Below, one piece after another: positions 5,482 to 64,000 of a DNA stretch of 64,000 nucleotides (positions are counted from its first letter, which is position 1; each line of letters starts with the position of its first letter). Under the pieces are notes generated by a model, which was not told the origin of the DNA, ran no database searches, and was given only the letters and a program-made list of their open reading frames with translations. The stretch comes from Abditibacterium sp. Its GTDB lineage: Bacteria > Armatimonadota > Abditibacteriia > Abditibacteriales > Abditibacteriaceae. A program made the translations under genes and the position numbers. The stretch spans positions 2,272,001-2,336,000 of the forward strand of contig CBDASK010000003.1 of assembly GCA_965199495.1 (NCBI GenBank). The letters run 5' to 3'.

Positions 5482-6113
5482 AACGCGTTTTAATTATAGG
5501 CGCGGGCGGCCACGCCAAAGTCGTTGCCGATATTTTGCAGTTGTGTGGCCACCATATTTTGGGTTGTCTGGACGATAACCCTCAATCGTGGGGCACATCG
5601 TGTTTGGGATTGCCAGTTTTGGGCGCTATCGCCGATTACGCGAAATATCAGCCCGATGGTTTGGTCATCGGCATTGGCTCCAATGGGGTGCGACAAACTT
5701 TGGTCAATCGTTTGGGCGAACCCGCGCGCGCGCTGTGGATAAACGCGATTCATCCGCGCGCGACCTTCGCCGCTTCGGCGAAAATCGGACGCGGCGTTGT
5801 CATCGCGGCTCACGCTGTGATTAATCCCAACACAATAATCGGCAATCACGCGATTATTAACACGGGAGCGACGGTTGATCACGATTGCCAAATCGGTGAT
5901 TACGCGCACATCGCGCCCGGTTCACATTTGGCGGGCGGTGTAACCGTTGGGGCGGGCGCGTTTGTCGGTATCGGCACTTCGGTCGTGCCCGGCGTGGCTG
6001 TTGGCGAGTGGGCGACTGTCGGCGCGGGAGCCGTGGTTTTGCGCGCTGTTCCCGCGCGTGCGACCGCTTATGGCGTGCCCGCTAAAGAGGTGCAAACACA
6101 AAAAAGTCCGTAG
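5478..6113 (+). CDS. Sugar N-acetyltransferase (EpsM/PglD/NeuD-like)
   Basis: GTG start overlapping upstream TGA; IIGAGGHAKVV, hexapeptide repeats, VDHDC, GVPAK. Confidence 0.9.
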   Translation: MKRVLIIGAGGHAKVVADILQLCGHHILGCLDDNPQSWGTSCLGLPVLGAIADYAKYQPDGLVIGIGSNGVRQTLVNRLGEPARALWINAIHPRATFAASAKIGRGVVIAAHAVINPNTIIGNHAIINTGATVDHDCQIGDYAHIAPGSHLAGGVTVGAGAFVGIGTSVVPGVAVGEWATVGAGAVVLRAVPARATAYGVPAKEVQTQKSP

Positions 6114-6153
6114 CTTTGAGACGCCAACTGCGCTTGACTTCTAACCCACAAAT

Positions 6154-7308
6154 TTGATGAGCAATATAATCAATGAATCGAAGAGAATTTATCTGTCGTC
6201 TCCTCACATGAGCGGCAGGGAACAAGAACTGGTTTTGGACGCTTTCGCTTCCAATTGGATCGCGCCGTTGGGGCCGCACGTTGACGGCTTCGAGCGCGAA
6301 GTCGCCGCTTACGTCGGCGTTTCCAACGCGGCGGCGCTTTCATCGGGCACGGCGGCGATTCATCTGGCGCTGCGTCTGCTCGACGTTGCGCCCGGCGACG
6401 AAGTCATTTGCTCGTCTTTTACTTTCAGCGCCAGCGCCAATCCGATTATGTATGAAGGCGCGCAACCGGTTTTCATAGATTCCGAATTCAAAACCTGGAA
6501 CATGGACGCGAATTTGTTGCGCGAAGAACTCGACGATTGCGCTCGGCGCGGCAAGTTGCCCAAAGCCGTCGTCGTGGTTGATCTTTACGGCCAATGCGCC
6601 GATTACGACGCCATCGAAGCGGTTTGCGCGCACTACGAAGTGCCAATTATCGAGGACGCGGCAGAGGCATTGGGCGCGTCTTACAAAAATCGCATGGCGG
6701 GCAGTTTCGGCAAGTTCGGCGTGTTCTCGTTCAATGGCAACAAAATTATCACGACATCGGGCGGCGGGATGTTGGTTTCCGACGACGCCGAGATGATTCA
6801 AAAGTGTCGCTTTCTGGCGACGCAGGCGCGCGACGCCGCGCCGCATTTTCAGCATTCGCACGTTGGCTACAACTATCGCATGAGCAATATGCTCGCGGCG
6901 ATTGGGCGCGGCCAGTTGGAAGTTTTGCCCCAGCGTATCGTGGCGCGCAAACGCAATTTCGAGAGTTATCAACAGGGTTTATCGTCGTTGCCGGGCGTTG
7001 AATTTATGCCGATTTCTGACGAGGGTAAACCCAATTATTGGCTGACGTGCATTACGATTGATCCGCGCCTCTTCGGCGCGGCGCGCGAGGACGTGCGTTT
7101 GGCGTTGGAAAAAGAGAATATCGAATCGCGCCCGCTGTGGAAGCCGATGCACCTGCAACCCGTATTCGCCCATTGCCGGATGCGCGATGGCAACGTTTCG
7201 GGGCCATTGTTTGAAAATGGTCTGTGTTTGCCGAGCGGCTCCAATCTCGAAGCCGCCGATGTCGAACGCGTGATTTCGATTATTCGCGATCTGTGTCCGA
7301 ATGCTTAA
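6154..7308 (+). CDS. DegT/DnrJ-family aminotransferase (EpsN/PglE-like)
   Basis: IYLSSPHM, SSGTAAIHLAL, EDAAEALG, SFNGNKIITTSGGG, LCLPSG. Confidence 0.92.
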   Translation: MMSNIINESKRIYLSSPHMSGREQELVLDAFASNWIAPLGPHVDGFEREVAAYVGVSNAAALSSGTAAIHLALRLLDVAPGDEVICSSFTFSASANPIMYEGAQPVFIDSEFKTWNMDANLLREELDDCARRGKLPKAVVVVDLYGQCADYDAIEAVCAHYEVPIIEDAAEALGASYKNRMAGSFGKFGVFSFNGNKIITTSGGGMLVSDDAEMIQKCRFLATQARDAAPHFQHSHVGYNYRMSNMLAAIGRGQLEVLPQRIVARKRNFESYQQGLSSLPGVEFMPISDEGKPNYWLTCITIDPRLFGAAREDVRLALEKENIESRPLWKPMHLQPVFAHCRMRDGNVSGPLFENGLCLPSGSNLEAADVERVISIIRDLCPNA

Positions 7309-7329
7309 ATTTGCGCTAACATAAAGCAA

Positions 7330-8591: not shown

Positions 8592-10541
8592 TTGGGAGCA
8601 CAAAGATTATTCCGTTCTATGCTGGCGCTGTTCGCGCTGTTGCTCGTCGCCAGCATCGTATTTAACCGTTCACTGGGGCAAAACCCGGTCAAAGAAATGG
8701 TCGCCAGCACTTTGCAGTCGAAGTTGTTAAAAGGCGAAGTCAAATCGGTTTCCATTACCGAAAACACGGCTGACGTCATGCTAAACAATGGCGACACCAA
8801 ATACACGGTTACCCTGCCAGCAGGTTGGACGCAGACAGACGAATTCAACGCGGCCCTCTACAAAAAGGATAACAAGGGCAATGCTTTAGCCGAAGTTAAA
8901 ATCGAGAAATCTCCCTTTAGCGGCCCACTCTTTAGCGTTCTGGGCTTGCTATTGCCGCTGATTTTGTTTGGCGCGTTCTGGATTTTCATCATGCGCCAAT
9001 CGCAGTCGGGCGCGGGTCAAGCGATGTCGTTCGGCAAGAGCAAAGCCAAGCGTTTGACCGATTCGTCGCAGAAAGTCACTTTCGCCGATGTCGCGGGTGT
9101 TGACGAGGCCAAACAGGAATTGCAAGAAGTCATTGACTTTTTGAAAAACCCCGAAAAGTTTCAGGCGTTGGGCGCCAAAATCCCGCGCGGCGTGTTGTTG
9201 TTGGGCAATCCCGGAACCGGCAAAACGCTCCTCGCGCGCGCCGTGGCTGGTGAAGCGGGCGTGCCGTTTTTCCACATTTCGGGTTCGGATTTCGTCGAGA
9301 TGTTCGTTGGCGTTGGCGCCAGCCGCGTGCGCGATTTGTTCGATCAGGCCAAGGCTCATCGTCCAGCCATCGTCTTCATTGACGAAATTGACGCTGTCGG
9401 TCGTCATCGCGGCGCCGGTATGGGTGGCGGTCACGACGAGCGCGAGCAGACGTTGAACCAATTGCTGGTCGAAATGGACGGCTTCGATCCGAATTCCGGC
9501 GTTATCTTGATGGCGGCGACCAACCGTCCCGACGTTTTGGATCCGGCTTTAACGCGTCCCGGTCGTTTCGACCGTCAGATCATCGTGGACAATCCCGACT
9601 CGAAAGGCCGTCTGGCGATTTTGGGCGTTCATGCTAAAGGCAAACCGATTGCTTCGGGCGTGGATTTGGATGTTATTTCGCGTCGCACCGCCGGTTTTTC
9701 GGGCGCGGATTTGGCCAACTTGGTCAACGAAGCGGCTTTGCTGGCGGCGCGGCGCAACAAGCAGCAGATCGGCGAGCCGGAATTTGAGGAAAGCATCGAG
9801 CGCGTGATTTCCGGGCCGGAACGTAAAAGTCGCATCATTCAGGAACGCGAGAAAACCGTCATCGCCTACCACGAAGTCGGACACGCGCTGTTGGGCAAAC
9901 TGTTGCCGAACATCGAGTCGCCGCACAAAATCACGATTTTGCCGCGCGGCATGGCCTTGGGTTATGTGTTGACTTTGCCTTCGGAAGACCAGTTCCTGCA
10001 ATCGAAATCGCAGATGCTCGATCACATGACGAGCGCTCTGGGCGGACGCGCCGCCGAGCAAGTCGTCTTCAATGAGACTTGGACGGGCGCGCAGAACGAT
10101 TTGGAAAAAGTCACCGATATGGCGCGTCGCATGATTTGCGAGTTCGGCATGAGCGAGCGACTGGGACTTGTCCAACTGGGCAAGCGCAGCGGCCCGGTCT
10201 TTTTGGGGCGCGACTACAACGAGGAGCGTAACTATTCCGAGGAAGTCGCCGCTAAAATTGACGCCGAAGTGCGAGCCGTTGTGGATAGTTGTTTCGAGAA
10301 AGCCACCGAAATGTTGACCGAAAATCGCGCCGTCATGGATCGCATCGTCAACGTTTTGTTGGAAAAAGAAACGCTGTCGGCGGAAGAGTTGGACAGAATC
10401 ATGAACGGCGAACCCGAACCGCCCGAACTGACGCCAACCCAGCCACCGGCACCGCCAACTCCGGCCTCAGAAGTGACAATTGAAAAAGCGCCGCCGCGCA
10501 CCAATCCCGGCGGATTGACGCCCGGTTTGGCCGGAGCGTAG
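8592..10541 (+). CDS. ftsH: ATP-dependent zinc metalloprotease FtsH
   Basis: TTG start at 8592 after AGGAGG; two TMs, [28 protein letters not shown]. Confidence 0.95.
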
Positions 10542-10550
10542 AATGGGTTG

Positions 10551-11570: not shown

Positions 11571-12053
11571 TTATTCCCAGTCGTAAACCCAGACTTCGAC
11601 ATCGCGCTCGCACAATTGCGCCGTAATCAACGACTCGATTCTATCCCACGTGCCGCCCGCCAAACCGCAACCGATGCGCGGCATATGAACGCTCGCGCCC
11701 AGTTCGAGCGCTTTAGCAGCCACGGCGGCCAGGCACTTTTCGATGGCATCGTAACGCACGGGTTGCGGCCCTCTGTCGCCTTTGCGGCGAATACCGTGTT
11801 GGCCGACCATATTGGCGACCCAAATCTCCGGTTCACATTGCACAAATTGAGTGGCGCCCAGACCGAAATCGTTGGTTTCGCGCGCTTTGGCCCACGCGCG
11901 AAATTCGCGTTCTGGCAGTTCCCAACGCCGCGAAAGCGCAATGACAAAGCCTTTGCCCCATCCGCCTTCATCATTGCTGACGTGAGCAATAATTTTGATG
12001 CCTTTGGCTTGCGGCGAAGTCGCGTCGCCCTGAATATAATGAATTGGTGTCAT
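11571..12053 (-). CDS. Macro domain (ADP-ribose processing, Poa1p-like) protein
   Basis: YIQGDAT, AHVSNDEGGWGKGFV, HMPRIGCGLAGG. Confidence 0.88.
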   Translation of the reverse strand: MTPIHYIQGDATSPQAKGIKIIAHVSNDEGGWGKGFVIALSRRWELPEREFRAWAKARETNDFGLGATQFVQCEPEIWVANMVGQHGIRRKGDRGPQPVRYDAIEKCLAAVAAKALELGASVHMPRIGCGLAGGTWDRIESLITAQLCERDVEVWVYDWE

Positions 12054-12700: not shown

Positions 12701-13273
12701 ATGAACGCTACTTTACCTGCCACACCCAAACGCATTGAGTTGATGCGCGCGCGCGCCGAATCGTCGCTCCAACAGCAAAATTGGAATGATTGCATCGCAG
12801 ATTGTCGTTTGTTGCTCCAACTCGATCCGCGCCATCATTTCGCGCAGGAAACCTTAGCCACGGCGCTCTTACAAATCGGCGAGACTGCCGCCGCCGTGGC
12901 TGCTGTGCGGCGCTTACTCGAAATTTCGCCGCGCGACCCGATGCACCGCTTGCGCTACGCCACGATGCTCCAAATGCAAGACCACTTCGGCCTCGCCGCG
13001 CGCGAGTTCGAGCGCATCACGCTAATGTATCCCGATTCGCCGTTCACGCCTGATGCACTCGAAGCCATCGAAAATTTAGATCGGATGCAGACCTCGCAAA
13101 TCCTGATGATGGCCGCCGAACACGACGAATTTCGCTGGCGCCTCGAACGCAATTTAACCGATTTACTCGATGAACAAGGTTTTTATCTGTCGGAAAACGC
13201 CGCCGAATCGTTGCGCCAGATGATTCCCAATTCGGAAATGGAAGTCGAAGCGCGGGCGCCGAAAGTGCATTGA
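12701..13273 (+). CDS. TPR-repeat protein
   Basis: Helical repeats with LxLDP/LEISP turns; start uncertain (12659 or 12701). Confidence 0.65.
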   Translation: MNATLPATPKRIELMRARAESSLQQQNWNDCIADCRLLLQLDPRHHFAQETLATALLQIGETAAAVAAVRRLLEISPRDPMHRLRYATMLQMQDHFGLAAREFERITLMYPDSPFTPDALEAIENLDRMQTSQILMMAAEHDEFRWRLERNLTDLLDEQGFYLSENAAESLRQMIPNSEMEVEARAPKVH

Positions 13274-13344: not shown

Positions 13345-13419
13345 TCGGGATGGCCGGATTTGAACCGACGACTTCGTCGTCCCGAACGACGCACTCTGAC
13401 CAAGCTGAGCTACATCCCG
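13345..13419 (-). tRNA. tRNA-Pro(CGG), CCA not encoded
   Basis: CGGGATG acceptor stem, TAGCTCAGCTTGG D arm, CGTCG-TTCGGGA-CGACG anticodon arm, GGTTCAAATCC T loop. Confidence 0.95.
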
Positions 13420-14298: not shown

Positions 14299-15579
14299 AT
14301 GTCGAACGCGCCGTTTCCCAAAGTTGATGATTCGCAGGTCATCGAAGATTTTTGCACCTATGTCAATCCCGCGCTCGCGCAGGTTTTGCAATTTATCGGC
14401 TTCACTTCTACCGAAGCCAGTGCCCGTGGCTGCATCGTCACCGACAGTCAGGGCCGCGAATATCTCGATTGCATCGGCGGTTATGGCACGATGAGTCTGG
14501 GCCATTCGCACCCGAAAATTATTCAGGCCGCCAAGGCTCAACTCGATGCGATGGCGTTTTCCAGTCGCGTTTTGTTCAACGCGCCGCAAGCGGCGCTCGC
14601 CAAGAAATTGGCCCAGATTACGCCGGGCGATTTGCAATATAGTTTCATTTGTAATAGCGGAACCGAAGCCGCCGAAGCCGCGATTAAATTCGCGCGCATT
14701 TCGACGGGACGCAAAAATTTGGTTTCGGCTAAAGGCGCTTATCACGGCAAAACGATGGGCGCTTTGAGCGTTTCGGGCCGCGACAAATATAAAACGCCGT
14801 TTGGGCCTTTGGTCACCGATGTTCAAACCGTGCCGTTCAACGACATCGAAGCGATGCGCGAAGCCGTAACCGAGGAAACCGCCGCGTTTTTGATCGAGCC
14901 GATTCAGGGCGAAGGCGGCATTAATGTCGCCTCAACCGAATATCTGCGCGCCGCGCGCGCACGCTGCGATGAAGTCGGCGCGTTGCTCGTCATGGACGAA
15001 GTGCAGACGGGTTTGGGACGAACCGGCAAAATGTGGGGCTGCGATTGGGCCTTTGAAAATACCGACATGGCGCCCGACATGATGCTGCTCGCCAAAGCGT
15101 TGAGCGGTGGCGCGATTCCCGTTGGTGCCGTTGTCGCCACGCCCAAAATTTGGGAATTCTGGAACAGTTCACCCTTAATTCATTCTTCGACGTTCGGCGG
15201 CAATCCGCTCGCGTGCGCGGTTGGACTGCGCACATTGGAAGTTATCGAGGAAGAGAACTTGGTCGAGCGAGCAGCCACGGCGGGCGACAAGATGTTCGCG
15301 GCATTGCGGCAAACGCAGGCGAAATTCCCCGATTTAGTCGTAGATGTTCGCGGGCGCGGCCTGATGATTGGCGTCGAATTTCCCGAAGAAGACATCACCA
15401 GTCTGGTTTTGGCGGGCCTCGCCCAACGCGATGTGTTGGTTGTGCCTTACACTTTCAACAACCCAACCGTGACGCGTTTCGAGCCGCCTTTAAATATCAG
15501 CGACGAACAAATCGAATGGGCGACCAAAGCCTTCGACGAAGCCGTAACTTCAACCGCCGAACTGTTGTCCGAGCTGTAA
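14299..15579 (+). CDS. Class III PLP aminotransferase (putrescine/acetylornithine aminotransferase-like)
   Basis: NSGTEA, YHGKT, EPIQGEGG, DEVQTGLGRTG, AKALSGG, STFGGNPLAC. Confidence 0.9.
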   Translation: MSNAPFPKVDDSQVIEDFCTYVNPALAQVLQFIGFTSTEASARGCIVTDSQGREYLDCIGGYGTMSLGHSHPKIIQAAKAQLDAMAFSSRVLFNAPQAALAKKLAQITPGDLQYSFICNSGTEAAEAAIKFARISTGRKNLVSAKGAYHGKTMGALSVSGRDKYKTPFGPLVTDVQTVPFNDIEAMREAVTEETAAFLIEPIQGEGGINVASTEYLRAARARCDEVGALLVMDEVQTGLGRTGKMWGCDWAFENTDMAPDMMLLAKALSGGAIPVGAVVATPKIWEFWNSSPLIHSSTFGGNPLACAVGLRTLEVIEEENLVERAATAGDKMFAALRQTQAKFPDLVVDVRGRGLMIGVEFPEEDITSLVLAGLAQRDVLVVPYTFNNPTVTRFEPPLNISDEQIEWATKAFDEAVTSTAELLSEL

Positions 15580-17675: not shown

Positions 17676-18863
17676 ATGATTTCCCCCGAAGACGCTTTAA
17701 CTCAACTCGAACGTGGCGCCGATACCATTATTCCGCGCGACGAACTTTTAGAAAAACTCCGCAAATCCGCCAAGTCGGGCGAGCCGTTGCGCATCAAACT
17801 CGGCCTCGACCCAACGGCGCCCGATATTCATTTGGGTTTTGCCGTCGTTTTGCGCAAGTTGCGCCAATTTCAGGATTTGGGCCATCATGCGCATTTGATT
17901 ATCGGCGATTTCACCGCGCAAATCGGCGATCCGTCGGGCAAAAGCAAAACTCGCCCGCAACTCACGCGCGAGCAGGTCGAGGAAAACGCCAAGACCTATC
18001 AAACGCAATTATCCGAAATTTTGGATCCCGATAAAACCACGATTCACTTCAACGGCGATTGGTTGGGCAAAATGGGCTTTGCCGACGTAATTCGTCTGAC
18101 GGCGAAATATACCGTCGCGCAGATGCTCGAACGCGAAGATTTCGCGTCGCGTTTGGCCGACAATAAACCGGTCGGAATGCACGAAATTTTGTATCCGCTC
18201 TGTCAGGGCCAAGATTCAGTTGAAATTCGCGCCGATGTCGAATTGGGCGGGACGGATCAGCGATTCAATAATTTGGTCGGGCGCGATTTGCAACGCGCGA
18301 GCGGGCAGGAAGCGCAAGTCGTGTTGCTAATGCCGATTTTAGTCGGGTTGGACGGCGTGCAAAAAATGTCGAAAAGTTTGGGCAATTATGTCGGAATCAA
18401 CGATGCGCCCACTGAAATGTTCGGCAAACTGATGAGCATTCCCGACAACGTGATGCGCCAATATTACACGCTTTGCACGGCTATTCCACTCGATGAAGTT
18501 GACGCGATTTTGGCCGGACATCCGATGGACGCCAAAAAGCGATTGGGAAGGGAAATCGTCGCGATTTATCACGGCGCCGATGCAGCCACGGCGGCGCAAG
18601 CGGCATTCGAGCAACAGTTCTCGCGCGCCGAAACGCCCGACGAAATGCCCGAAATCGAAATCGCGGTTAAGGAAATCGGCGTCGTAGATTTGCTCGTCGC
18701 GTGCTTCGGCGGCAGCAAAAGCGAGGCGCGCCGCATGGTCGAGCAGGGCGCCGTGGCTGTTGATGGCGACAAAATAGATGACGCGACGGCAAACGTCGAG
18801 GCGCGCGATGGGATGACGGTGAAAATGGGCAAACGCCGTTGGGCGCGGGTGAAAGTCGGTTGA
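17676..18863 (+). CDS. tyrS: Tyrosine--tRNA ligase
   Basis: LGLDPTAPDIHLG, ELGGTDQ, KMSKS, C-terminal S4 domain. Confidence 0.96.
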   Translation: MISPEDALTQLERGADTIIPRDELLEKLRKSAKSGEPLRIKLGLDPTAPDIHLGFAVVLRKLRQFQDLGHHAHLIIGDFTAQIGDPSGKSKTRPQLTREQVEENAKTYQTQLSEILDPDKTTIHFNGDWLGKMGFADVIRLTAKYTVAQMLEREDFASRLADNKPVGMHEILYPLCQGQDSVEIRADVELGGTDQRFNNLVGRDLQRASGQEAQVVLLMPILVGLDGVQKMSKSLGNYVGINDAPTEMFGKLMSIPDNVMRQYYTLCTAIPLDEVDAILAGHPMDAKKRLGREIVAIYHGADAATAAQAAFEQQFSRAETPDEMPEIEIAVKEIGVVDLLVACFGGSKSEARRMVEQGAVAVDGDKIDDATANVEARDGMTVKMGKRRWARVKVG

Positions 18864-22292: not shown

Positions 22293-23165
22293 ATGGATTC
22301 CCAATCGCCCTTGCCCGCCGTCCAACTGAACAAATCCAATTCCGAAGGCGCGCCGCCGGGTTCTCGGCCAATTCCGCGTTGGCGTTGGTGGGTTGCGCTT
22401 CTCATCGTCGGTTCATTTCCGGTTTTGGCCGCGCTCAGCTCGACGCGCCGCGTCGGTCACGACAGCCACGGCGAAGCGACTTTGCCCAAATCGGTCGAAG
22501 GTTTGCTGTTGCTGGGCGGGTTACAATTTGGATTTATCCTGTTGTTGTTCGGCCTGAGTTGGCTGTTTTCGCGCGCCACTAAAGACGAACTTTGGCTGCG
22601 CTGGCGTGAGGGCAACGCGCCAATTTGGAAAGGCGTGCTTTATTCGATTGGCTTGCGATTTTTGGCGGCGTTGCCGCTCATCGCGATTGGCATCGTGTTA
22701 ATGAATATGGGTTTCAGCGAACACCAACTCAAAGCGTGGATGGAGGGCAACAAGCCGCAAACCGAAGGCATCGGCGATTCGGTTCGCGCGGGCACGTTGC
22801 TCTACAAAGCAACGATGCTGACTTTTTTTAGTTTCGTCGTCGCCGGTTTGGGCGAAGAATTATGGCGTGGCGCGACGATGCGCGCTCTGCTCGAAATCGC
22901 GCCGCGTGCGTTGTCGCCGCTCGCCAAAAACGTCATCGTCGTCATCGTTTCGTCGGTCGTTTTCGGCGTTGGCCATTTGTATCAGGGCGTTATTGGCGTT
23001 TTAGTCACGACCGTTTTGGGCCTCGCGTTGGGCGCGCTCACGCTGCATCATCGTTCGATTTGGCCGTCGGTCATCGCGCACGGTTGCTTCGATGCGACGA
23101 CGTTTTTGATGGTCATGCTGGGCGCTGATAAAATGGCGCAAGAAGCGCATTTTTGGATGTTCTGA
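22293..23165 (+). CDS. CPBP/Abi-family intramembrane metalloprotease
   Basis: EELWRG, FGVGHLYQG, AHGCFD motifs in a TM protein. Confidence 0.85.
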   Translation: MDSQSPLPAVQLNKSNSEGAPPGSRPIPRWRWWVALLIVGSFPVLAALSSTRRVGHDSHGEATLPKSVEGLLLLGGLQFGFILLLFGLSWLFSRATKDELWLRWREGNAPIWKGVLYSIGLRFLAALPLIAIGIVLMNMGFSEHQLKAWMEGNKPQTEGIGDSVRAGTLLYKATMLTFFSFVVAGLGEELWRGATMRALLEIAPRALSPLAKNVIVVIVSSVVFGVGHLYQGVIGVLVTTVLGLALGALTLHHRSIWPSVIAHGCFDATTFLMVMLGADKMAQEAHFWMF

Positions 23166-30444: not shown

Positions 30445-30479
30445 AGGTTCTCGCGTCCACATACAGCCACGCCGCCGAT

Positions 30480-52137: not shown

Positions 52138-52890
52138 TCGTGCGCGCGGGCGCTTAATATCTGACAAATTTTGGGAGGATAATAGCAGGGAATCGGAAGG
52201 GGAACGCTCAAACAAGCCGTGATAGTGAGCAAAAATAACTAACTCGACCCGTCCCGAAATTTGTAATTTTTCAAATATCGCGGTCAGGCGGTGGCGAACC
52301 GTGGCTTCGCTAATGAACAATTGAGCGGCAATAGCTTGATTTTTCATCGCCTGACAGACCAGAGAAATGACATCGTGTTCCCCTTTGGTGAGCGTGCTAA
52401 TGCGCCAAGTGAGATTATCTTTGTTGGACGATTGCGGGCGTTTGTTCTCGTGCAACAGGCTCGTCACCATCGTGCGTTCGATCCAGATTTCGCCAGCATG
52501 AACACATCGCAGAGCCTTGAAGAACAGCTCGACACTTTGGTTTTGCTGCACAATTCCCATCACGCCATGATCAATGGCTTGCTTGAGCAATTCGTAATTA
52601 CGAGAAGAAGTCAGCAACACAACACGACATTCGGTGTCGGCCTTAAATACCGCGAGCAACAGACTTTGTAAGGTTTCATCAAAGTCGTCCATGTCAAACA
52701 GAACGATGTCGGGGCGAAGTTGAGACACGAGGCGCACCGTCTCGTCGCCGTGGCTGCTGTTGCCTACCACTTCAAAATCTGGTTGGGTATGGAGCAAGCA
52801 GCACAACGCGGCCCGCGAAATTGCATCGCTGGTGTTTCCAGAAACGAAGATGCGCAATGGAATCGTGGAGTTGAGTGCGGATTCAAGCAT
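52132..52890 (-). CDS. NarL/LuxR-family response regulator with atypical receiver
   Basis: PDIVLFD, VVLLTS; LTKGEHDVI..NQAIAAQLFISEATVRHRLTAIFEKL. Confidence 0.88.
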   Translation of the reverse strand: MLESALNSTIPLRIFVSGNTSDAISRAALCCLLHTQPDFEVVGNSSHGDETVRLVSQLRPDIVLFDMDDFDETLQSLLLAVFKADTECRVVLLTSSRNYELLKQAIDHGVMGIVQQNQSVELFFKALRCVHAGEIWIERTMVTSLLHENKRPQSSNKDNLTWRISTLTKGEHDVISLVCQAMKNQAIAAQLFISEATVRHRLTAIFEKLQISGRVELVIFAHYHGLFERSPSDSLLLSSQNLSDIKRPRARK

Positions 52891-54162: not shown

Positions 54163-55120
54163 GTTTTTTCGTCCTCCATGCCAAAAGCAACGCCGCCAGT
54201 GTTAAAGGCCCAAAAGTGAGCGCCAAATTGATATTGCGTTGTCTGTTTTCTGCCGCGTGTTCCTGATCATCCAGAACGCCCAACTTTTTGGCTTCTTTAT
54301 CGGTAATGGCAAAAACATCGGCTTTGGTCATCGGCACAGAAGAAGTTTTCCTGATTATTAAAGGCGCGCCAAAGCGAGTATCGGCTAAAATTGCGGGGCG
54401 AGCGATAAAAAATTGCAACGGCTGCGCAGGTTTCTTGCTGAATGTAGCAGCCGAAAATTCAAAGCGCAAAGGCATTAAACTCGTGCCTACGCTCGGATAC
54501 TTAACGGTTGCTGTTTGCGGCATCAAACCGCCGTTTTGCGCGCCCTGAGTTTCGATTGTGACAAAAGGCTTGCCCTCTTTCTGCAATCGCTCGATGCGGC
54601 GCGCCAGAAACTTTTGTCGTGGATCAAGCAACGCTCGGATCGGCTTGCCGTTGGGTGTTTGGCCTTGCAATTCCACCAAAGGCGAACCAGCCACGGCGCT
54701 GACGTGGGGCGATTTCAGCATCGAAAGTCCGCGTCCTTTAAAAAAACAGGCGCCGGGCAGCAGCAACAGCATTCGATTATTGGGGGTATCGCTGAGCAAA
54801 CTCAAGCGCGAAATCGTCACCGAATTGCCGACGGAAGAGAACTCGTCCTGCCCATCGAAAAGCGTTTCTGTAACTGGGAGTTGCGAACCTTTGTCCTTCA
54901 GTTGCACCGTGCGAAAACGGTATTTATCGCCCGTTGAAGTGGAGCTTATCTGGCGGACGGGTTTGCCATTTTCCAAAACGCGCGCCTGAAAGCTGCTGGT
55001 GGCAAACGCCGCGTCCGCTTCTCGAATAGCTTTTAACGTGGCGCCTTCGTCGAGCGCATAACAAGCGTGACTCGCCAGCAACGCGGTCATCAAACCGCCA
55101 AAAGTCTTGATAAATTGCAT
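54155..55120 (-). CDS. Exported hypothetical protein with C-terminal TM anchor
   Basis: GGAGG RBS, signal peptide, C-terminal hydrophobic helix followed by RTKKR. Confidence 0.65.
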   Translation of the reverse strand: MQFIKTFGGLMTALLASHACYALDEGATLKAIREADAAFATSSFQARVLENGKPVRQISSTSTGDKYRFRTVQLKDKGSQLPVTETLFDGQDEFSSVGNSVTISRLSLLSDTPNNRMLLLLPGACFFKGRGLSMLKSPHVSAVAGSPLVELQGQTPNGKPIRALLDPRQKFLARRIERLQKEGKPFVTIETQGAQNGGLMPQTATVKYPSVGTSLMPLRFEFSAATFSKKPAQPLQFFIARPAILADTRFGAPLIIRKTSSVPMTKADVFAITDKEAKKLGVLDDQEHAAENRQRNINLALTFGPLTLAALLLAWRTKKRV

Positions 55121-56696: not shown

Positions 56697-58058
56697 TCAC
56701 ATTCCGCGTCCGCCCAACATCCGCCCCATTTTGCCCATGCCGCGTGGCATCTTCATTTTGCCGCTTTGCATCGCTTGCAGTTGCCGCATCATCTTTTGCA
56801 TATCGCGGAACTGATTTAATAGCCGATTAATCTCCTGCACGCTCGTGCCCGATCCCGCCGCGATGCGCTTTTTGCGGCTGGCGTTGATTACGTCCGGTTG
56901 GCGGCGTTCGCGCGGCGTCATGGACAGAATAATCGCTTCGACGCGTTTCATCATTTTGTCGTCAATGCCAGCTTGGGCGGCTTTGGGCAGTTTGTTCATG
57001 CCGGGAATCATTTCCAGCATTTTGTCCATCGGCCCCATTTTTTTCATCTCCTTCATCTGGAGCAGAAAATCCTCGAAATCGAAGCTGCCCTTTTTCATGC
57101 GCGCTTCCATCTCTTCCATGCTCGCCATCGTGACCTGCTTTTCGACGTTCTCGATCAAACTCAACACGTCGCCCATGCCCAAGATGCGGCCCGCCATGCG
57201 GTCGGGATGAAACAGTTCGATGGCATCCAATTTCTCACCGGTGCCAATATATTTTACTGGCACGCCCGTCACGCTGCGCACGCTCAAAATCGCGCCGCCG
57301 CGCGCGTCGCCGTCCATTTTGGTCAAAACAACGCCCGTCAAAGGCAACGCCTCGTTGAAGGCGGCAGCAGCAGCCACGGCGTCTTGGCCGGTCATCGCAT
57401 CGAGGGCCAAAAGCGTTTCATCGGGCGTGACGGCTTCGGCGATGGCTTTGGCCTCGCTCATCATATTCTCGTCAACGTGCAGACGGCCCGCCGTGTCGAT
57501 AATTACGACATCATAGGCTTTATCGCGCGCCAATGCCACGCCGCGCTGCGCGATGTGAACCGGATTGATCTCGCCCTCTTCGTAAACCGGCACGCCGACT
57601 TGTTCGCCGACGATTTGCAACTGTTTAATCGCCTGAGGGCGATAAATATCGCACGCCACCAGAAGCGGCCTTTTGCCTTCGCGCTTGAGCAAAGCCGCGA
57701 GTTTGGCGGCGGTCGTGGTTTTGCCCGTTCCCTGCAAACCGGCGAGCATAATCACGGTCGGGCCTTTGGAACTCCACTGCAAACGATGGGTTTGGCCGCC
57801 CAGAAGTTCCTGCATCTCGTCGCGCACGACGGCGATCACCATTTGGTCGGGCGTCAGGCTTTTCAAAACGTCTTCGCCGACGGCTTTCACGCGCACGCGA
57901 GCGATGAACTCTTTAACGATTTTGAAGTTGACATCGGCTTCCAAGAGCGCCAATCGCACTTCGCGGAGAGCGGCGTCAACGTCGGCTTCGGTGAGCTTGC
58001 CTTTGCCGCGCAGTTTGGCGAGCGTGCCAGTGATTTTTTGAGAAAGAGACGAAAGCAT
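56697..58058 (-). CDS. ffh: Signal recognition particle protein
   Basis: GLQGTGKTT, DTAGR, TKMDGDARGG, Met-rich M domain, RIAAGSG. Confidence 0.97.
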   Translation of the reverse strand: MLSSLSQKITGTLAKLRGKGKLTEADVDAALREVRLALLEADVNFKIVKEFIARVRVKAVGEDVLKSLTPDQMVIAVVRDEMQELLGGQTHRLQWSSKGPTVIMLAGLQGTGKTTTAAKLAALLKREGKRPLLVACDIYRPQAIKQLQIVGEQVGVPVYEEGEINPVHIAQRGVALARDKAYDVVIIDTAGRLHVDENMMSEAKAIAEAVTPDETLLALDAMTGQDAVAAAAAFNEALPLTGVVLTKMDGDARGGAILSVRSVTGVPVKYIGTGEKLDAIELFHPDRMAGRILGMGDVLSLIENVEKQVTMASMEEMEARMKKGSFDFEDFLLQMKEMKKMGPMDKMLEMIPGMNKLPKAAQAGIDDKMMKRVEAIILSMTPRERRQPDVINASRKKRIAAGSGTSVQEINRLLNQFRDMQKMMRQLQAMQSGKMKMPRGMGKMGRMLGGRGM

Positions 58059-58818: not shown

Positions 58819-58880
58819 GCCCGATAGTTTAATGGCCCACTAACTTTGGTTAGCGGGCCGTTTGTTCTGGTACTTTCTGT

Positions 58881-59351
58881 TTACGGCGTCGGCGTGGCTG
58901 CATCGCGCTTGCCCATCAATCGGGTCAATGCCGCGTCAACCGATAACAAACCGGGGCCGGTCAGGAAAATGACGAGGGCGAACAGAAAATACATTGCCGC
59001 CAATTCGTAAGGGTTTTTCACCGTTGGGCCACTGATAAAACCGGAGTCGCCTTTCATTATCGTAGATAAAACGGCCACGAACATCGTGCACATCACGCCC
59101 AGACAGGCGAGCGGTGTGAGAACGCCGAACATGATGGCCAAACCGCCAAAAAACTCGGAGAAAGCCGCCAATCCCTGCAAAAATCCGGGTGGCCCATCCG
59201 GCCCCATCCAACCGAAAAAGCCACCATCGCTCTGGATTTTTCCCAAACCATGAACGGCCATCGCGTAGCCCACAAACACGCGCAAAATAAATAAACCGAC
59301 GGCGCCTGGCCCGTGAAAATAGTAACGCGGATGAAAGAAGAAATTTTTCAT
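58881..59351 (-). CDS. DoxX family membrane protein
   Basis: LRVFVG..M.VHGLGK, EFFGGL..FGVLT, GPGLLSVD. Confidence 0.88.
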   Translation of the reverse strand: MKNFFFHPRYYFHGPGAVGLFILRVFVGYAMAVHGLGKIQSDGGFFGWMGPDGPPGFLQGLAAFSEFFGGLAIMFGVLTPLACLGVMCTMFVAVLSTIMKGDSGFISGPTVKNPYELAAMYFLFALVIFLTGPGLLSVDAALTRLMGKRDAATPTP

Positions 59352-59433
59352 TGGCGCGCCCTTGCGCAAATCGAACGCCGGGCTTGAAATGCCGGATGAA
59401 GGGCAATCCAATTATCCTTAAATCACTTCGTTT

Positions 59434-60540
59434 ATGAACCCCAATTTGCCCCAATCCGCCGCCGCGACGTTGCGCGCGGCGCGCTCGCTCCAGAATACGC
59501 CCGCCCTCGCCGGGTTCGACGGCTTTATTGATACGATTTGCCACGCCGTTGACAAACGCCATGACGCGCAGAATTACGACCGCATTCGCACGCTACGCGA
59601 GTTTGGCGAGCGCATCGCGGCGGCGGCTGGCAAATCGGCCAACGTCGAAATCGTGCCGACTCTGGTCAAACTCGGCGGCAACGGCCCGATTATGGCCAAC
59701 GCGCTGTGCGCTCTGGGATTGGATGTGACTTATTGCGGCATGACCGGCTATCCCAACACGCATTCGGTTTTTGAAGAGTTCGGCCAGAGCGCCAAACTTT
59801 TGCCGATTTCGGCGCCCGCTTTGACCGATGCCTACGAATTTGACGACGGCAAACTCATCGTCGGCAAACACGCGACGGTCGCCGAAGTCAGTTACGAAAA
59901 CCTGATGAGCCGCGTTGGCGAAGACGCGTGGTTCGAGGCGTGGGATGCCGCCAAATTCGTGGCGATGGTCAACTGGACGATGCTGCCCTACATGACGCCT
60001 TTGTGGAAAAGGATGCTCGAATTTCCCGCGACATCAGAACGCAAAACTCTGTTTTTCGATTTGGCCGATCCGGAAAAACGTTCGCGTGAAGATATTCTCG
60101 ACGCGCTGCAAACTATCGCCAAATTCCAGGAGAATCACGACGTGATTTTGGGTCTCAACGAGGCCGAAGCGATTCAGGTCGGCGAAACGCTCGACGTTTC
60201 GACTCCCGTTGGCAAAGTCACCGATCACGAAAGCGCGCCCGAATTAGCGGCGGCGATTCGCGCCAAATTGGAAATCGGTGTTGTCGTGGTGCATCCGACG
60301 AAATTCGCCGCCGCCGCCGACAGCCACGACGCCGTGGCTGTGGATGGGCCATTCATCGCCCAACCGAAAATCTCGACGGGCGCGGGCGATCATTTCAACG
60401 CCGGTTTCTGTCTGGGCCAACTTTTGGGCGCCGATTTGGAGCAATCGCTGCAAATGGGCGTCGGCACATCGGGCTTTTATGTGCGCAATGCGCAAAGCCC
60501 ATCGCGCGAGGATTTGGCGGATTTTCTGGCGACTTTGTAA
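59434..60540 (+). CDS. PfkB/ribokinase-family kinase-like protein
   Basis: LGGNGPIMANAL; STGAGDHFNAGF. Confidence 0.8.
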   Translation: MNPNLPQSAAATLRAARSLQNTPALAGFDGFIDTICHAVDKRHDAQNYDRIRTLREFGERIAAAAGKSANVEIVPTLVKLGGNGPIMANALCALGLDVTYCGMTGYPNTHSVFEEFGQSAKLLPISAPALTDAYEFDDGKLIVGKHATVAEVSYENLMSRVGEDAWFEAWDAAKFVAMVNWTMLPYMTPLWKRMLEFPATSERKTLFFDLADPEKRSREDILDALQTIAKFQENHDVILGLNEAEAIQVGETLDVSTPVGKVTDHESAPELAAAIRAKLEIGVVVVHPTKFAAAADSHDAVAVDGPFIAQPKISTGAGDHFNAGFCLGQLLGADLEQSLQMGVGTSGFYVRNAQSPSREDLADFLATL

Positions 60541-60990
60541 ATGATCGACCACATCAACATCGTCGTCGCCGATTTGGAACGCGCCGCGCATTTTTACGAA
60601 GCGCTGTTTGGCTTTAAACGCGGCTTCTCCGCCCAACTTCAAGGCGATTGGATCGAAACCGTCACCGGACTTCAAGGCGCCCGCGCTCAATGTCTGTTTC
60701 TCGATCCGCCGCGCGCAGCAGCCACGCGTATCGAGCTAATTCGCTACGACGCGCCCGACGCCGAATTTTCGCCGTTCGCGCCGACGCCCAACGAACCCGG
60801 TTTGCGTCACATCGCGTTTGAAGTCGAAGACATTGATGCGACTTTGAATCAGGTGCGCGCGTTGGGCCTCACGCCGTTTTCCGCGCCAGTCGAAGTGCCG
60901 TTTCGCGTGGCGAATCTGGGTGTAAAGCACTTGGCTTATTTTCACGATTTCGACGGGACAATCGTCGAAGTCGCGGCTTATCGTAAATAG
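60541..60990 (+). CDS. VOC/glyoxalase family protein
   Basis: IDHINIVVADLE, IELI, GLRHIAFEVEDID, FHDFDGTIVE. Confidence 0.88.
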   Translation: MIDHINIVVADLERAAHFYEALFGFKRGFSAQLQGDWIETVTGLQGARAQCLFLDPPRAAATRIELIRYDAPDAEFSPFAPTPNEPGLRHIAFEVEDIDATLNQVRALGLTPFSAPVEVPFRVANLGVKHLAYFHDFDGTIVEVAAYRK

Positions 60991-61381: not shown

Positions 61382-61388
61382 TTATTTT

Positions 61389-64000
61389 TTATTCCGTCGC
61401 GATTTCCCACCAAACCGTTTCATTTTGCGGCTCAATCTCAAACGACAAAACGCCGTTTTTGAGTTGCGAACTTTGAATTTTGCCGAGCGCTCCCGTCGGC
61501 GAAAGTTGAAACACGCGCGCGCGTTTGGCGTTGGTTTTAATCTCTATATTGGCGCGCGGCACCTCGATTTGCGTTGGGCCTTCGCCCCATTTGTCGCCGA
61601 CGCTCGTGCGGTCGGCGTTCCAACCCATATTCTTGTTTTCGGCGCGATTCATCGCCGTCAAGAGCAACGATTTCGATTGTGCAATCGGCGATTTATCGAG
61701 CGCGACCAAAGTGATTGTCGCCCACTGATTCGACGATTTGACATCGGAAACGCGTAGCGCGCCCAGTTGTGTGGGGCCGACCAAAAAGTTGTCTCCGATT
61801 TTTCCGACGACGATTTTCGTTGCGGGCGCGTCCACCGAAATGACGCCGCGTCCGCCGCGAAAATCCCAATTCCACGCGCCGCCGCGTGCGCCGCTTCGTT
61901 CCAGTTTCGGCTCAGTTCCCGACGGAGCCAAACGCAGTTGCACGCGGCTTCCGACTAAATCATCGCGACGCAAACCGCGCGCGCGCCATTCGTCGGTGAT
62001 GATGCTGTTGTAAACGCTCGCGCTGCGGGTTTGTGCCGTCATTTCCAGCAAGCGGTCGCGCGGCACGACTAAAGTCGTCGTGCCCGCGAAGGCAGCCACG
62101 TCGCCGCGAAGGAAAGAACGCGCCATCGAAGGAAAGAACGCCATTTTGTTCGGATCGGAACTCACATCGAAATAATTGCGGATTTTATCGGAATTCCAAT
62201 TGTCGCGGTCGCCGTTGTAATCGAACAAAAAGATGCCGTCCCAATCCTGCGCGGCGGCGTAACTGAAAATTAGCGGAATCGTTTCGCTGGCGTAATCATT
62301 GGGCGCGGCGTGGTTGTATTCGCTGACCGTAAACGGCTTGCCCGCGATGCGATGCGTCGCCAAACTCATCAATGTTCCCGTATCGGCGGCATCAGTCATC
62401 GGCGTGTTGGGAGTATTCCAATTCGACGCGTCCCACGCTTGGCCGGGGAAACTGGGATGCTGCCAATACGCGTGCGAATCCACCCAATCGGTGCGGCTCT
62501 CGCGCGCGATTCCAGCCCACGCGCCATAACTCGCCTGCGAGCAAGTCACCAAACCTTTGTAGCCGAGTTCATTCTTGATGCAATCGGTCATGGTATCCAC
62601 ATAAGATTTTTCGACGGCGGCCAGATAATCCACCCAATCCTGGCCCTGCGTCGGCACGATGTTTTGGCCCGGCAAATCGAAGTTGGCTTTTTCCAGCGAC
62701 CAATCGGGCGCGATGTCGGCGACGATGCCGGGTCGGATTTGCACATCCGACAAATAAACCGCGTCGTTGGCGCCGCCGACGGCGAAAGTGATGCGGTTCA
62801 AATCGGGGTCTAAGCCGCCCGCGCGAAACACGAAATGAAACTCTTGCCATTGCGGCGTAAGTTGGAAAGTCGCCGCGCCATAACGCGTCCACGGATCGCG
62901 ATTGATGCCGACCGAGGCGTTAATTTCGCGCGGCGCATCGGCGCGCGCGCGCAGCGAAACCGTGTAGTTCTGGCCCGCGCGCAACTTCAACTTCGTCTGC
63001 ATCAGTTCCATCTGCCAATCGTTTTCCGGCTTTTTGGTGATGCTAACTTTGAGCGCTTTAACGCCGTTACCGTCCACGGTTCCGACAGCACCTTCCGAAG
63101 CGGCTTGGCGAACCAATTCCCACTGCGCGGTTCCTTCGCTCAAAGCCACGTCGCGCGTGATATTTGCGCCCAACGGTTCGCCTTCCCACGCGCGGCGCAA
63201 CGTGCCATCGTTGGCATAGCGCGCTTTGAGAAATGTGTTCCAACCTTTTTCCAACGTCGCGCGATAAAATGGCGGCAACTTTTGCAGCGATCCGTCGAAG
63301 GCGTGGCCGATTAGGGTGTCTTCATTGTTCAGTTCGACCAGAGCCACGGCGGGGTCGTCGGCCCACTTCTTTCCGGTTTTGGGATTGACATGGCCCAAAA
63401 TCTGGCGCGCGTATTCTTTCTGTTGCGCGATAAATTGCGGCTCGAAATACGCCGTAACCTTACCCATTTCCGGGATTTTGTCGGTGTCGGGAAAACCGTC
63501 GCCGTTCGTCAGCGCGCGCGCGACATGTAAATTGAGGTCAACATAAACACCGTTTTTGCTCAGTTCGCTGACCATATTATCGAGCAAGGCCAGACTGTCG
63601 GCGTCAACGGTTTGGTTTGGCCCTTTTCCTGAATCGTGATCGGCGCCGAAAATTGACGGATTGGCCCAACTCGCATCCATATGATGCAGACGCACGATAT
63701 TAAAGCCATATTTGTGCAAACGCGCCGCGACGGCGGGCGCGTCGGCGGGCCGAGTAAAATTGGCCGTCGCCACGAAGTTGGTGCCGACAAACCGCACGCG
63801 ACGCCCGACTCCATCCACGAAGTGGCCGTCTTGGACGCGGATGCGTTGCGCATCGGTCAAAGGCGCCGGATTCAAATCGCCAACGCTGGTCGAAGTTTTA
63901 GCGTCGTCGTTCCACGGCAACGTGAAAGCGAAATTCTGCGCGTGAACCGGCGCAATCAGCGCGAGGGCGAGCGCGCCCAGGATGGGAATGGGGAACAGTA
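61389..64000 (-). CDS. Secreted clan GH-A glycoside hydrolase with inserted CBM4/9-like domain; 5' end outside the window
   Basis: GFNIVRLHHMD, VELNNED, DSHAYWQHP, PFTVSEYN; frame open to the edge through a signal peptide. Confidence 0.8.
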   Translation of the reverse strand, partial: LFPIPILGALALALIAPVHAQNFAFTLPWNDDAKTSTSVGDLNPAPLTDAQRIRVQDGHFVDGVGRRVRFVGTNFVATANFTRPADAPAVAARLHKYGFNIVRLHHMDASWANPSIFGADHDSGKGPNQTVDADSLALLDNMVSELSKNGVYVDLNLHVARALTNGDGFPDTDKIPEMGKVTAYFEPQFIAQQKEYARQILGHVNPKTGKKWADDPAVALVELNNEDTLIGHAFDGSLQKLPPFYRATLEKGWNTFLKARYANDGTLRRAWEGEPLGANITRDVALSEGTAQWELVRQAASEGAVGTVDGNGVKALKVSITKKPENDWQMELMQTKLKLRAGQNYTVSLRARADAPREINASVGINRDPWTRYGAATFQLTPQWQEFHFVFRAGGLDPDLNRITFAVGGANDAVYLSDVQIRPGIVADIAPDWSLEKANFDLPGQNIVPTQGQDWVDYLAAVEKSYVDTMTDCIKNELGYKGLVTCSQASYGAWAGIARESRTDWVDSHAYWQHPSFPGQAWDASNWNTPNTPMTDAADTGTLMSLATHRIAGKPFTVSEYNHAAPNDYASETIPLIFSYAAAQDWDGIFLFDYNGDRDNWNSDKIRNYFDVSSDPNKMAFFPSMARSFLRGDVAAFAGTTTLVVPRDRLLEMTAQTRSASVYNSIITDEWRARGLRRDDLVGSRVQLRLAPSGTEPKLERSGARGGAWNWDFRGGRGVISVDAPATKIVVGKIGDNFLVGPTQLGALRVSDVKSSNQWATITLVALDKSPIAQSKSLLLTAMNRAENKNMGWNADRTSVGDKWGEGPTQIEVPRANIEIKTNAKRARVFQLSPTGALGKIQSSQLKNGVLSFEIEPQNETVWWEIATE

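Follow-up and report, generated by a model that had tools for sequence, protein, structure and literature searches.

According to a 2025 survey, sequence-specific uptake signals are established in just two proteobacterial families. The DNA uptake sequences (DUS; 12 nt, with dialects) of the Neisseriaceae and the uptake signal sequences (USS; 9-nt core) of the Pasteurellaceae are non-palindromic, occur about once per kb in equal numbers on both strands and are present in more exact copies than near-misses; they lie in core genes, in biased frames and at a cost in amino acids, their spacing is more even than random, and they are scarce in mobile DNA, limited to a clade and flanked differently in sister species. 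These features are shared by the word described here, the octamer CGTGGCTG with its flanking bases, which was noticed in a stretch of 64,000 nucleotides from Abditibacterium sp. (GenBank assembly GCA_965199495.1, our genome G000; contig CBDASK010000003.1, positions 2,272,001 to 2,336,000, or G000:C3:2272001-2336000), called the window in what follows. An original prediction, made on the window alone, had proposed that the octamer was a new uptake-sequence dialect, or else a nucleoid-protein or methyltransferase site. The word cannot be called a dialect of the signals of Neisseria or the Pasteurellaceae: it is unrelated to them in sequence and belongs to a different phylum, Abditibacteriota. 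It also differs from DUS and USS in that its close inverted pairs are mostly in genes, not in terminators, and in that copies of the same orientation exclude one another.

Other described systems are also comparable. The Chi sites of RecBCD and AddAB have, like this word, an asymmetric 8-nt core, species specificity and under-representation in foreign DNA, and they are read in one orientation, as this word may be. The cyanobacterial highly iterated palindromes (HIP1 and alternate HIPs) are likewise hyper-abundant, lineage-specific octamer cores situated in genes, conserved beyond background and quasi-regularly spaced, with weak GC skew; in contrast, CGVCGTGGCTG, the longer form of the word, is not self-complementary, its orientation matters, and no cognate methyltransferase was identified. 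The FtsK orienting polar sequences (KOPS) and other polar architecture words, whose strong polarity changes strand at ori and ter, differ from the G000 word, which has neither strand polarity nor a switch in 200-kb bins.

The G000 assembly consists of 4.81 Mb in three contigs (the chromosome C3 and two small contigs, C1 and C2) with a GC content of 55.7%, and it contains 3,091 copies of CGTGGCTG, about one per 1.5 kb. The over-representation of the octamer is thus confirmed. In the window there are 36 exact copies (20 +, 16 -); 34 of them are inside called coding sequences (CDS) and 29 have CG at positions -3/-2. Dinucleotide-preserving shuffles of the window (n = 100) gave a mean of 2.00 copies (sd 1.29, maximum 5), and none of the 100 reached 36. 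On recount, all 35 octamer coordinates listed originally were correct and one copy, at 14425 (+), had been overlooked.

The full word is CGVCGTGGCTG(C)(W). Its 11-mer, CGVCGTGGCTG / CGNCGTGGCTG, is present in 2,180 copies in G000, with C (1,051 copies), G (641), A (421) or T (67) at the N position. The octamer ranks 13th among about 32,000 strand-collapsed octamers, the 12 commoner ones being all CG-only, and CGCCGTGGCTGC, with 690 copies, is the commonest 12-mer of the genome. The genome-wide logo gave C in 75% of copies at -3, G in 82% at -2 and C/G/A in 42/36/18% at -1; on the 3' side it gave C in 58% at +8 and T/A in 49/21% at +9, and no sequence conservation was seen in it past about 13 nt. 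The extension first suggested, G(C/G)CGTGGCTG(C/T), agrees roughly with this logo. The word is also sharply bounded: the 13-mer consensus has 349 copies, and each single change at positions -3, -2 and 0 to 6 has 0-15. Exact 11-mers dominate over near-misses, with 2,180 perfect copies against 1,941 for all 30 one-mismatch classes summed, while a reversed control word had 33 perfect and 720 one-mismatch copies.

Several null models were compared with these counts. Markov models predicted 164 (order 1), 237 (order 3), 1,428 (order 5) and 2,692 (maximal order) octamers against the 3,091 observed, the expectations of order 5 and maximal order being high because such models re-use the word's own sub-words. 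The enrichment ranged from 13-fold (order 3) to 19-fold (order 1) for the octamer and from 177-fold (order 3) to 295-fold (order 1) for the 12-mer. Genes were called with a crude codon-likelihood caller, which gave 3,927 genes in G000. When synonymous codons were shuffled within each of these genes, so that protein and per-gene codon usage were preserved, the octamer fell to 277 ± 15 against 2,862 in CDS, and the 12-mer pattern to 26 ± 5 against 1,230 (20 replicates). Permutation of codon order left 201 octamers and 7.5 copies of the 12-mer pattern (20 replicates). The original prediction was to be given up if the enrichment disappeared under a null preserving codons and amino acids, and it persists (277 against 2,862).

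Most copies are in genes: 2,862 of the 3,091 octamers (93%) are in called CDS, at a density of 0.69 per kb in CDS and 0.32 per kb outside. The CDS copies are sense in 1,611 cases and antisense in 1,251, and are evenly distributed along the length of the genes. It had been remarked that copies occupy differing reading frames, which is correct, but the frames are biased, since 2,073 of the 2,862 fall in two phases, xxC GTG GCT Gxx (sense) and xCA GCC ACG (word antisense). These dominant phases encode V-A or A-T with alanine-rich neighbours. The copy in MurE (41979) encodes A-V-A where five word-less relatives have A-(T/S/G)-V, which indicates that two amino acids were replaced to create the word.

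The two strands of the chromosome carry 1,525 (+) and 1,558 (-) copies. There was no strand switch in any 100- or 200-kb bin, and each strand had 42-81 copies per 200-kb bin. The expected lack of replichore polarity was therefore borne out, although it is weak evidence. No replichore structure is visible along C3, where the GC skew stays within about 0.02 of zero over 4.7 Mb and the fraction of genes on the + strand is erratic (0.27-0.62); origin and terminus are therefore not placeable from composition, and the missing polarity says little against orientation-dependent functions.

The word is scarce in DNA that looks foreign. The chromosome has 0.65 copies per kb, and the small contigs C1 and C2, with 2 and 6 copies, have 0.08 and 0.09 per kb. 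In 10-kb windows, those with GC below 0.48 average 1.5 copies, those with GC 0.48-0.52 average 3.1, and the remaining ones 5.8-6.9. The biggest word-free gaps contain three large serine recombinases, type I restriction-modification (R-M), KAP, TIR, NucS-like and DndB-like proteins, phage capsid and portal, Cas4/Cas1, a low-GC glycosyltransferase cluster and a metal-efflux cluster. Depletion in islands had been suggested as a check; the word is scarce on the small contigs and in islands of defence, prophage or polysaccharide genes, and the AT-rich block at 1-4800 of the window is indeed free of the word, the first copy being at 5993. As separate observations on the chromosome, the word-poor island region at about 1.12-1.23 Mb of C3 (L125-L129) holds three large serine recombinases and type I R-M together with KAP NTPase, TIR, NucS-like, AAA_25 and DUF3854 genes, and DndB-like and TGT-like genes are situated in another gap without the word, at about 1.25 Mb (L130).

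A property that we present as new is that copies of the same orientation avoid one another out to about 1-1.6 kb. Counting all octamer pairs in G000, there were 6 in the same and 98 in opposite orientation at distances of 8-60 nt, 6 and 40 at 60-100 nt, 29 and 89 at 100-200 nt, 59 and 183 at 200-400 nt, 215 and 418 at 400-800 nt, 693 and 883 at 800-1,600 nt, and 1,699 and 1,671 at 1,600-3,200 nt. The opposite-orientation pairs correspond to random expectation, except that below 20 nt there are 57 where 12 would be expected. The exclusion is seen between copies in one gene as well as between copies on either side of a gene boundary and becomes stronger with the full 11-mers, whereas three frequent control octamers had the opposite pattern, with direct pairs at least as numerous as inverted ones. 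It was also possible to see it in the window, with 2 same-orientation and 8 opposite-orientation pairs within 1 kb, and it was replicated in a sample of a second species, G011 (18 direct against 60 inverted pairs below 800 nt). On each strand, gaps shorter than 500 nt numbered 69 and 68 against 228 and 237 under a Poisson model; the per-strand spacing had a coefficient of variation (CV) of 0.85 and medians of 2,383 and 2,363 nt against 2,143 and 2,098 expected, and 63% of adjacent copies alternate in orientation. To our knowledge no same-orientation exclusion has been reported for DUS or USS. It shows that the orientation of the word matters, without revealing how the word acts.

Close inverted pairs (9-60 nt) number 97 genome-wide, 81 inside CDS and 16 outside, 5 of these 16 with a T-run. 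The 81 pairs in CDS (for example window 60321-60340) might, as a guess, come from quasi-palindrome template switching. A directional footprint of divergence could not be used: identity between G000 and G011 was 85.9% on the 5' side and 85.2% on the 3' side of shared sites, and 85.4% against 85.1% around all G000 sites, differences that are too small and autocorrelated.

The relatives searched were 41 genomes in total, including 13 Abditibacterium (3 word-bearing and 10 word-less); they share ancestry, and counts across them are not mutually independent. Among these genomes the word is limited to three Abditibacterium species. The 12-mer pattern CGNCGTGGCTGC was found 1,350 times in G000, 1,047 times in G011 and 431 times in G004; none of the remaining 38 genomes (10 of the same genus) had more than 36 copies, a level equal to that of the reversed control. 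Apart from such whole-genome pattern counts, G004 and G011 were studied in samples of 400 kb (L081-L100) and 385 kb. In the G011 sample the logo is the same as in G000. G000 and G011 are 85.2% identical at the nucleotide level; G011 preserves 74 of 115 G000 11-mers and G000 preserves 74 of 92 from G011, while random 11-mers are intact in 27% of cases. Sites that are not shared are either one base off or at least 4 off, with 2-3 differences being rare, and lineage-specific sites number 18 in G011 against 41 in G000. G004 (80.2% identity) shares 20 of 122 sites with G000, which does not exceed the 21% of the control, but 20 of the 27 G000-type sites of G004 are shared with G000. Taken together, these two proportions suggest that the accumulation of the word began in the common ancestor and continued chiefly in the G000/G011 line. 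In the division and cell wall (dcw) region of the window, 7 of 8 sites are present in locus L001 and 3 in L002; new sites there arise via substitution, in gap-free alignments. L002 also has, relative to the window, an insertion between convergent genes that contains a variant-flank pair.

The word would be a mark of self, at the level of DNA, in one small Abditibacterium clade; codon usage, peptide motifs, chance and a mobile repeat are excluded as the source of its G000 form. Among the matches listed in the literature for the octamer in either orientation there were only primer or unrelated uses, and among the titles listed for Abditibacterium or Abditibacteriota none concerned genome words.

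G004 has a second form of the word. The 400-kb sample contains 288 core copies, of which 47 have G000-type flanks (44 of these coding) and 179 have the variant flanks (T)(A)GGACGTGGCTGGTGTC, which differ from the G000 form at -3 and +8, make a longer word and occur in only 42 copies in G000. As non-coding we count 131 of the 179 variant copies, an upper bound because the caller misses atypical AT-rich genes, and 44 of the 131 have an adjacent hairpin with a stem of about 10 bp overlapping the box. The variant is clustered intergenically, in arrays and inverted pairs, and L002 carries identical variant flanks. There was no favoured orientation with respect to neighbouring gene ends (35, 34, 34 and 28 in the four contexts) and no short-range exclusion among same-orientation variant-flank copies. 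The intergenic element, of about 0.45 per kb (L081-L100; also L002:2751-2800), has the appearance of a repetitive extragenic palindromic (REP) sequence: a stem GTCCTACGGC, a loop of about 7 nt and GCCGTAGGAC, overlapping a GTGGCTGGTGTC(G) box. REP sequences and bacterial interspersed mosaic elements, with their REP-associated tyrosine transposases (RAYTs), are comparable in being extragenic and clustered, in both orientations, with a hairpin followed, here, by GTGGCTGGTGTC. The form of G000 and G011 differs from them, as it is in CDS, has no hairpin and is born by substitution, and no repeat-flanked RAYT was seen; nor is a link of the extragenic G004 variant to RAYTs supported.

A different word was found in the rest of the family. 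RAGTACTY has 2,876-4,371 sites per genome in G014, G018, G020, G022 and G024, which belong to two other genera of Abditibacteriaceae, with lineage-specific flanks (CGAGTACTCG, TGCAAGTACTTGCA and CAAAGTACTTTG; loci L014 and L016-L019). Genus g5 and all 13 Abditibacterium genomes are nearly free of it, G000 having 5 sites where the control has 117. These AGTACT palindromes of the sister genera resemble HIPs, and the pattern looks like HIP-type words outside the cyanobacteria together with restriction-type avoidance elsewhere in the family. Supposed word dialects in L005, L006 and L015, detected in a Markov-3 scan of L003-L019, were rejected as local tandem repeats, and the loci of about 20 kb L004, L006, L007 and L010 had no dispersed word of at least 0.3 per kb. 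The arrays that mimic words are at L005:65-131, L015:14033-14096 and L006:21081-21181, with periods of 7, 14 and 8 nt.

The genes that could read the word were searched in five genomes. ComEC, DprA and a ComEA-like HHH_3 protein are present in the word-bearing G000, G011 and G004, which also have 6-8 stretches of the secretin family and 7-10 of the PilB/PilT-type (T2SSE) ATPase family. Competence gene content had been suggested as a check, and its outcome is divided: the kit is found in the word-bearing genomes, and in word-less relatives as well. RecC (PF04257) was found in none of the five genomes. A search for PD-(D/E)XK nucleases detected an AddB/RexB-like PDDEXK_1 protein of 1,124 aa in 10 of 10 word-less Abditibacterium (L122:4196-7570 in G006) and in 0 of 3 word-bearing ones. 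Conversely, a Dna2-like nuclease-helicase of 1,421 aa (G000:C3:4111365-4115630, - strand), which joins a PD-(D/E)XK domain at its N terminus to an SF1 helicase at its C terminus, was found in all three word-bearing genomes, G000, G011 and G004 (the last with 86% identity), and in 0 of the 10 word-less Abditibacterium; in 13 further genomes partial matches of 30-35% were found in two only (G029 and G034). The protein is nearest to Dna2, Upf1 and anti-phage helicases. Its gene has 4 copies of the word and a GC content of 0.58, and is thus a long-term resident. In G011 the gene is truncated, without about 720 N-terminal codons, and contains a TGA; this genome has 0.36 perfect words per kb against 0.46 in G000, and a one-mismatch to perfect ratio of 1.22 against 0.88. 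By PADLOC and NCBIfam the helicase part is nearest to the anti-phage helicases MkoA, DpdJ and PLuB, and for this reason the protein may be an unrelated defence gene. The swap of nucleases is a single event on one branch, and so constitutes a lead and not an independent test.

Other candidates gave less. A TopIB beside the nuclease-helicase was considered and dropped, being a core gene in 12 of 13 genomes and unlinked in G004. In G034, which has an open frame of 1,432 aa partly like the nuclease-helicase, there was no iterated word in 200 kb, a result that is uninformative. The DNA methyltransferase stretches of G000 (4 of PF00145, 6 of PF01555 and 10 of PF02384) belong to repertoires that differ per genome, and none specific to the three word-bearing genomes stood out. 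Y1 transposase genes are in word-less genomes too, with no clade-specific pattern, and boxes flank them no closer than the background density.

Taking into account that these hallmarks fit DUS and USS best, a transformation-linked uptake signal is ranked first: we give a probability of roughly 0.45 to a self word of the DUS/USS kind, kept by molecular drive and read directionally. The proposal of an uptake sequence is partly supported and fits most of the hallmarks that can be computed (density, strands, sharpness, islands, clade, change of flanks, frames, replaced amino acids and competence kit). The word would have entered core genes via point substitutions, some of them altering amino acids, and a process favouring exact copies would hold about one copy per 1.5 kb. 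This process would most likely be molecular drive by preferential uptake and recombination of conspecific DNA, with a competence machine as the putative reader and with drive, not selection on each site, maintaining the word. Reading would be directional, each copy serving the DNA on one side for roughly a kilobase, so that a second copy of the same orientation within reach would gain nothing and be lost, while one of opposite orientation would be independent. With chance, codon usage, peptide motifs and a mobile repeat set aside for the G000 form, what is left is a word acting at the level of DNA, favoured in its exact form, with an orientation that matters and a benefit that saturates within about 1 kb on the same strand.

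There are several points that do not favour uptake. The word-less G006 and G012 have the competence genes just as the word-bearing genomes do (5/5 genomes in all), no uptake receptor, which in Neisseria is of the ComP type, was identified, no search for one having been made, and we know of no natural transformation in the phylum Abditibacteriota. The nuclease swap has the same distribution as the word and suggests a reader inside the cell instead. As regards placement, 93% of copies are in called CDS, and only the 16 of 97 close inverted pairs mentioned above are outside CDS, 5 of them with a T-run, whereas in genomes with DUS or USS more than 90% of the inverted repeats are in terminators. 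In favour of uptake, biased frames and inverted repeats are described for DUS and USS as well, and 65% of H. influenzae uptake sequences are reported in open reading frames. Uptake by H. influenzae is reported to be independent of the orientation of the signal (PMC1939737), and the same-orientation exclusion therefore requires the added assumption of directional reading.

That exclusion follows more naturally, as does the gene swap, from the main rival, a Chi-like signal, in which an end-processing nuclease-helicase would read the word one way on linear DNA and switch from degradation to recombination. Word-bearing alleles would escape resection, and word-less ones would be resected and copied from a word-bearing template, which amounts to biased gene conversion; the word would also mark self against word-less phage and plasmid DNA, and the candidate reader would be the 1,421-aa protein. 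Chi is likewise tied to an end-processing nuclease, and here the AddB-like protein was lost and the Dna2-like one gained on exactly the word-bearing branch. G011, moreover, appears somewhat decayed, with its truncated gene, fewer perfect words, higher mismatch ratio and fewer lineage-specific sites, and the missing replichore polarity is uninformative in a genome without GC-skew or gene-strand signal. We nevertheless regard this explanation as doubtful. With RecC in 0/5 genomes and the AddB-like protein in 0/3 word-bearing ones, no known Chi reader is present, and the link with the Dna2-like protein is one co-occurrence on one branch, with a protein that may be a defence gene as mentioned. Although the candidate reader is truncated in G011, the copies there are spaced in the same pattern and reach about 80% of the density; the gene of G004 is intact, yet 400 kb of this genome have 47 copies with G000 flanks, most copies being of the variant form, and no short-range exclusion; and G034, which bears a distant homologue, is without an iterated word in 200 kb. 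The word also differs from Chi in its 11-nt specificity and its enrichment above 100-fold, and no Chi is known to us with that length or that enrichment. A more elaborate version is less probable again: that a Dna2-like PD-(D/E)XK/SF1 enzyme replaced the AddB-type one in a new Chi system, that an oriented 11-nt word was spread by biased gene conversion to about one per 3 kb per strand as a recombination signal and as a mark of self against word-less phage and plasmid DNA, and that the Abditibacteriaceae would be a family of recurrently arising and replaced genome words, the AGTACT palindromes and the oriented word among them.

In the model proposed for the cyanobacterial palindromes, a methyltransferase acts together with short-patch repair. 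The equivalent here would be a methyltransferase and a short-patch repair dependent on methylation or mismatches that turns near-matches into exact copies, whether or not this serves transformation; we hold it improbable. RAGTACTY, hyper-abundant in two sister genera with flanks that vary by lineage, and the many DNA methyltransferase genes of G000 speak for it. Against it, the word is non-palindromic and specifies 10 bases, which exceeds the R-M methyltransferase sites that we know of, no methyltransferase stood out as confined to the word-bearing genomes, and orientation-specific exclusion is not expected from a repair drive. In studies of HIPs, the palindromes co-occur with cognate methyltransferases (PMC4390886), HIP1 raises transformation only when it is methylated, and it is now proposed as an uptake signal; because this recent work ties HIP1 to transformation, the uptake and the repair explanations may converge. 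A protein site with a role in architecture or repair (for a nucleoid protein, for strand-specific nicking that guides repair, or as a priming signal), selected for regular coverage of each strand, would agree with the per-strand spacing, which is more regular than Poisson (CV 0.85) and orientation-specific, and with the absence of the word from recently acquired DNA. It is very improbable, as selection on about 2,000 sites, with alteration of enzymes like MurE, would be hard to sustain without drive, ten congeners do without such a word, and no candidate protein was found. Nothing found points to the methyltransferase or nucleoid-protein site that had been offered as alternatives. A mobile repeat of the REP type, or of the miniature inverted-repeat transposable element type, or a codon, peptide or chance by-product, is scarcely credible, and survives for the intergenic form of G004 only: there 131 of 179 variant copies are intergenic and 44 of the 131 have a hairpin, with arrays and inverted pairs, the pair of L002 is within an insertion, and Y1 transposase genes are present. 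For the G000 form this explanation is refuted by the placement in CDS (2,862 of 3,091 copies), by alignments that are gap-free against orthologues without the word and by the enrichment that outlasts the synonymous-shuffle and codon-permutation nulls; conservation does not go past about 13 nt, and the Y1 genes are not specially flanked by boxes.

The copies in the window and the word-free block are listed below. By Pfam, the window includes the housekeeping genes FtsH, TilS-like, TyrRS and Mla and the dcw cluster (MraW, PBP, MurE, MurF and MraY).

Table: Copies of CGTGGCTG in the window and the word-free block; flanks are the three bases on the 5' side, and core-only copies are without CG at -3/-2.
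Position	Strand	Feature	5' flank	Location and remarks
1-4800		AT-rich word-free block, island-like negative control		GC 0.44-0.47; Wzy O-antigen polymerase and GT4 glycosyltransferases (Pfam)
5993-6000	+	word copy	CGG	CDS
9242-9249	+	word copy	CGC	FtsH gene
11717-11724	-	word copy	CGC	CDS
12895-12902	+	word copy	CGC	CDS
14425-14432	+	core-only copy	GCC	aminotransferase gene; absent from the original list
15272-15279	-	word copy	CGC	CDS
18583-18590	-	word copy	CGC	TyrRS gene
18752-18759	+	word copy	CGC	TyrRS gene
21369-21376	-	word copy	CGA	CDS
22463-22470	-	word copy	CGC	CDS
23477-23484	+	word copy	CGA	CDS
24548-24555	+	word copy	CGC	MlaD-like gene
27556-27563	-	word copy	CGC	MlaE gene
29223-29230	+	word copy	CGC	CDS
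30464-30471	-	word copy	CGG	not in called CDS
30815-30822	+	word copy	CGG	CDS
31276-31283	-	core-only copy	TGG	CDS
32017-32024	+	word copy	CGC	CDS
34987-34994	-	core-only copy	GGG	CDS; common to L001
37085-37092	+	core-only copy	GTT	not in called CDS; in neither L001 nor L002
38321-38328	+	word copy	CGG	RCC1-repeat gene; in L001, not L002
39673-39680	-	word copy	CGC	DUF1800 gene; common to L001
40864-40871	+	word copy	CGC	DUF1501 gene; in L001; L002 one base off (CGTGGCGG)
41979-41986	+	word copy		MurE; common to all three word-bearing species
44411-44418	+	core-only copy	GCG	MurF; in L001 and L002
44599-44606	-	word copy	CGC	MurF; in L001 and L002
47462-47469	+	word copy	CGG	CDS
48517-48524	+	core-only copy	TGG	Ser/Thr kinase-TPR gene
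52749-52756	+	word copy	CGC	CDS
54688-54695	-	word copy	CGC	CDS
57371-57378	-	word copy	CGC	CDS
58893-58900	+	word copy	CGG	CDS
60321-60328	-	word copy	CGT (rare)	left arm of close inverted pair within CDS
60333-60340	+	word copy	CGC	right arm of close inverted pair, 12 nt from partner
60719-60726	-	core-only copy	ACG	CDS
62093-62100	-	word copy	CGA	CDS

Some further observations concern the window and the composition of the genome. The sole Rfam match in the window at the gathering score is a tRNA gene at 13345-13419 (-). The commonest octamers of G000 are CG-only despite the GC content of 55.7%, with about 4,950 copies of CGCCGCGC and about 3,800 each of the self-complementary GCGCGCGC and CGCGCGCG; CG-only octamers are frequent in related loci as well.

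If true, the presence of such a word in a soil phylum with hardly any cultured members would mean that the self-marking of genomes is much more widespread. The function of HIP1 has only now been connected with transformation. The word is sharply defined and young enough to be confined to three species, with flanks that have already diverged in one of them. The zone of about 1 kb in which copies of the same orientation exclude one another offers a quantitative footprint of how its reader works, and the swap between the AddB-like and Dna2-like proteins supplies a concrete candidate protein. Whether it is directional uptake or a new system of the Chi type, it would in either case be new biology, if true. 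The word could also improve the efficiency of transformation for Abditibacteriota genetics, and it flags horizontally acquired DNA in the genomes that bear it.

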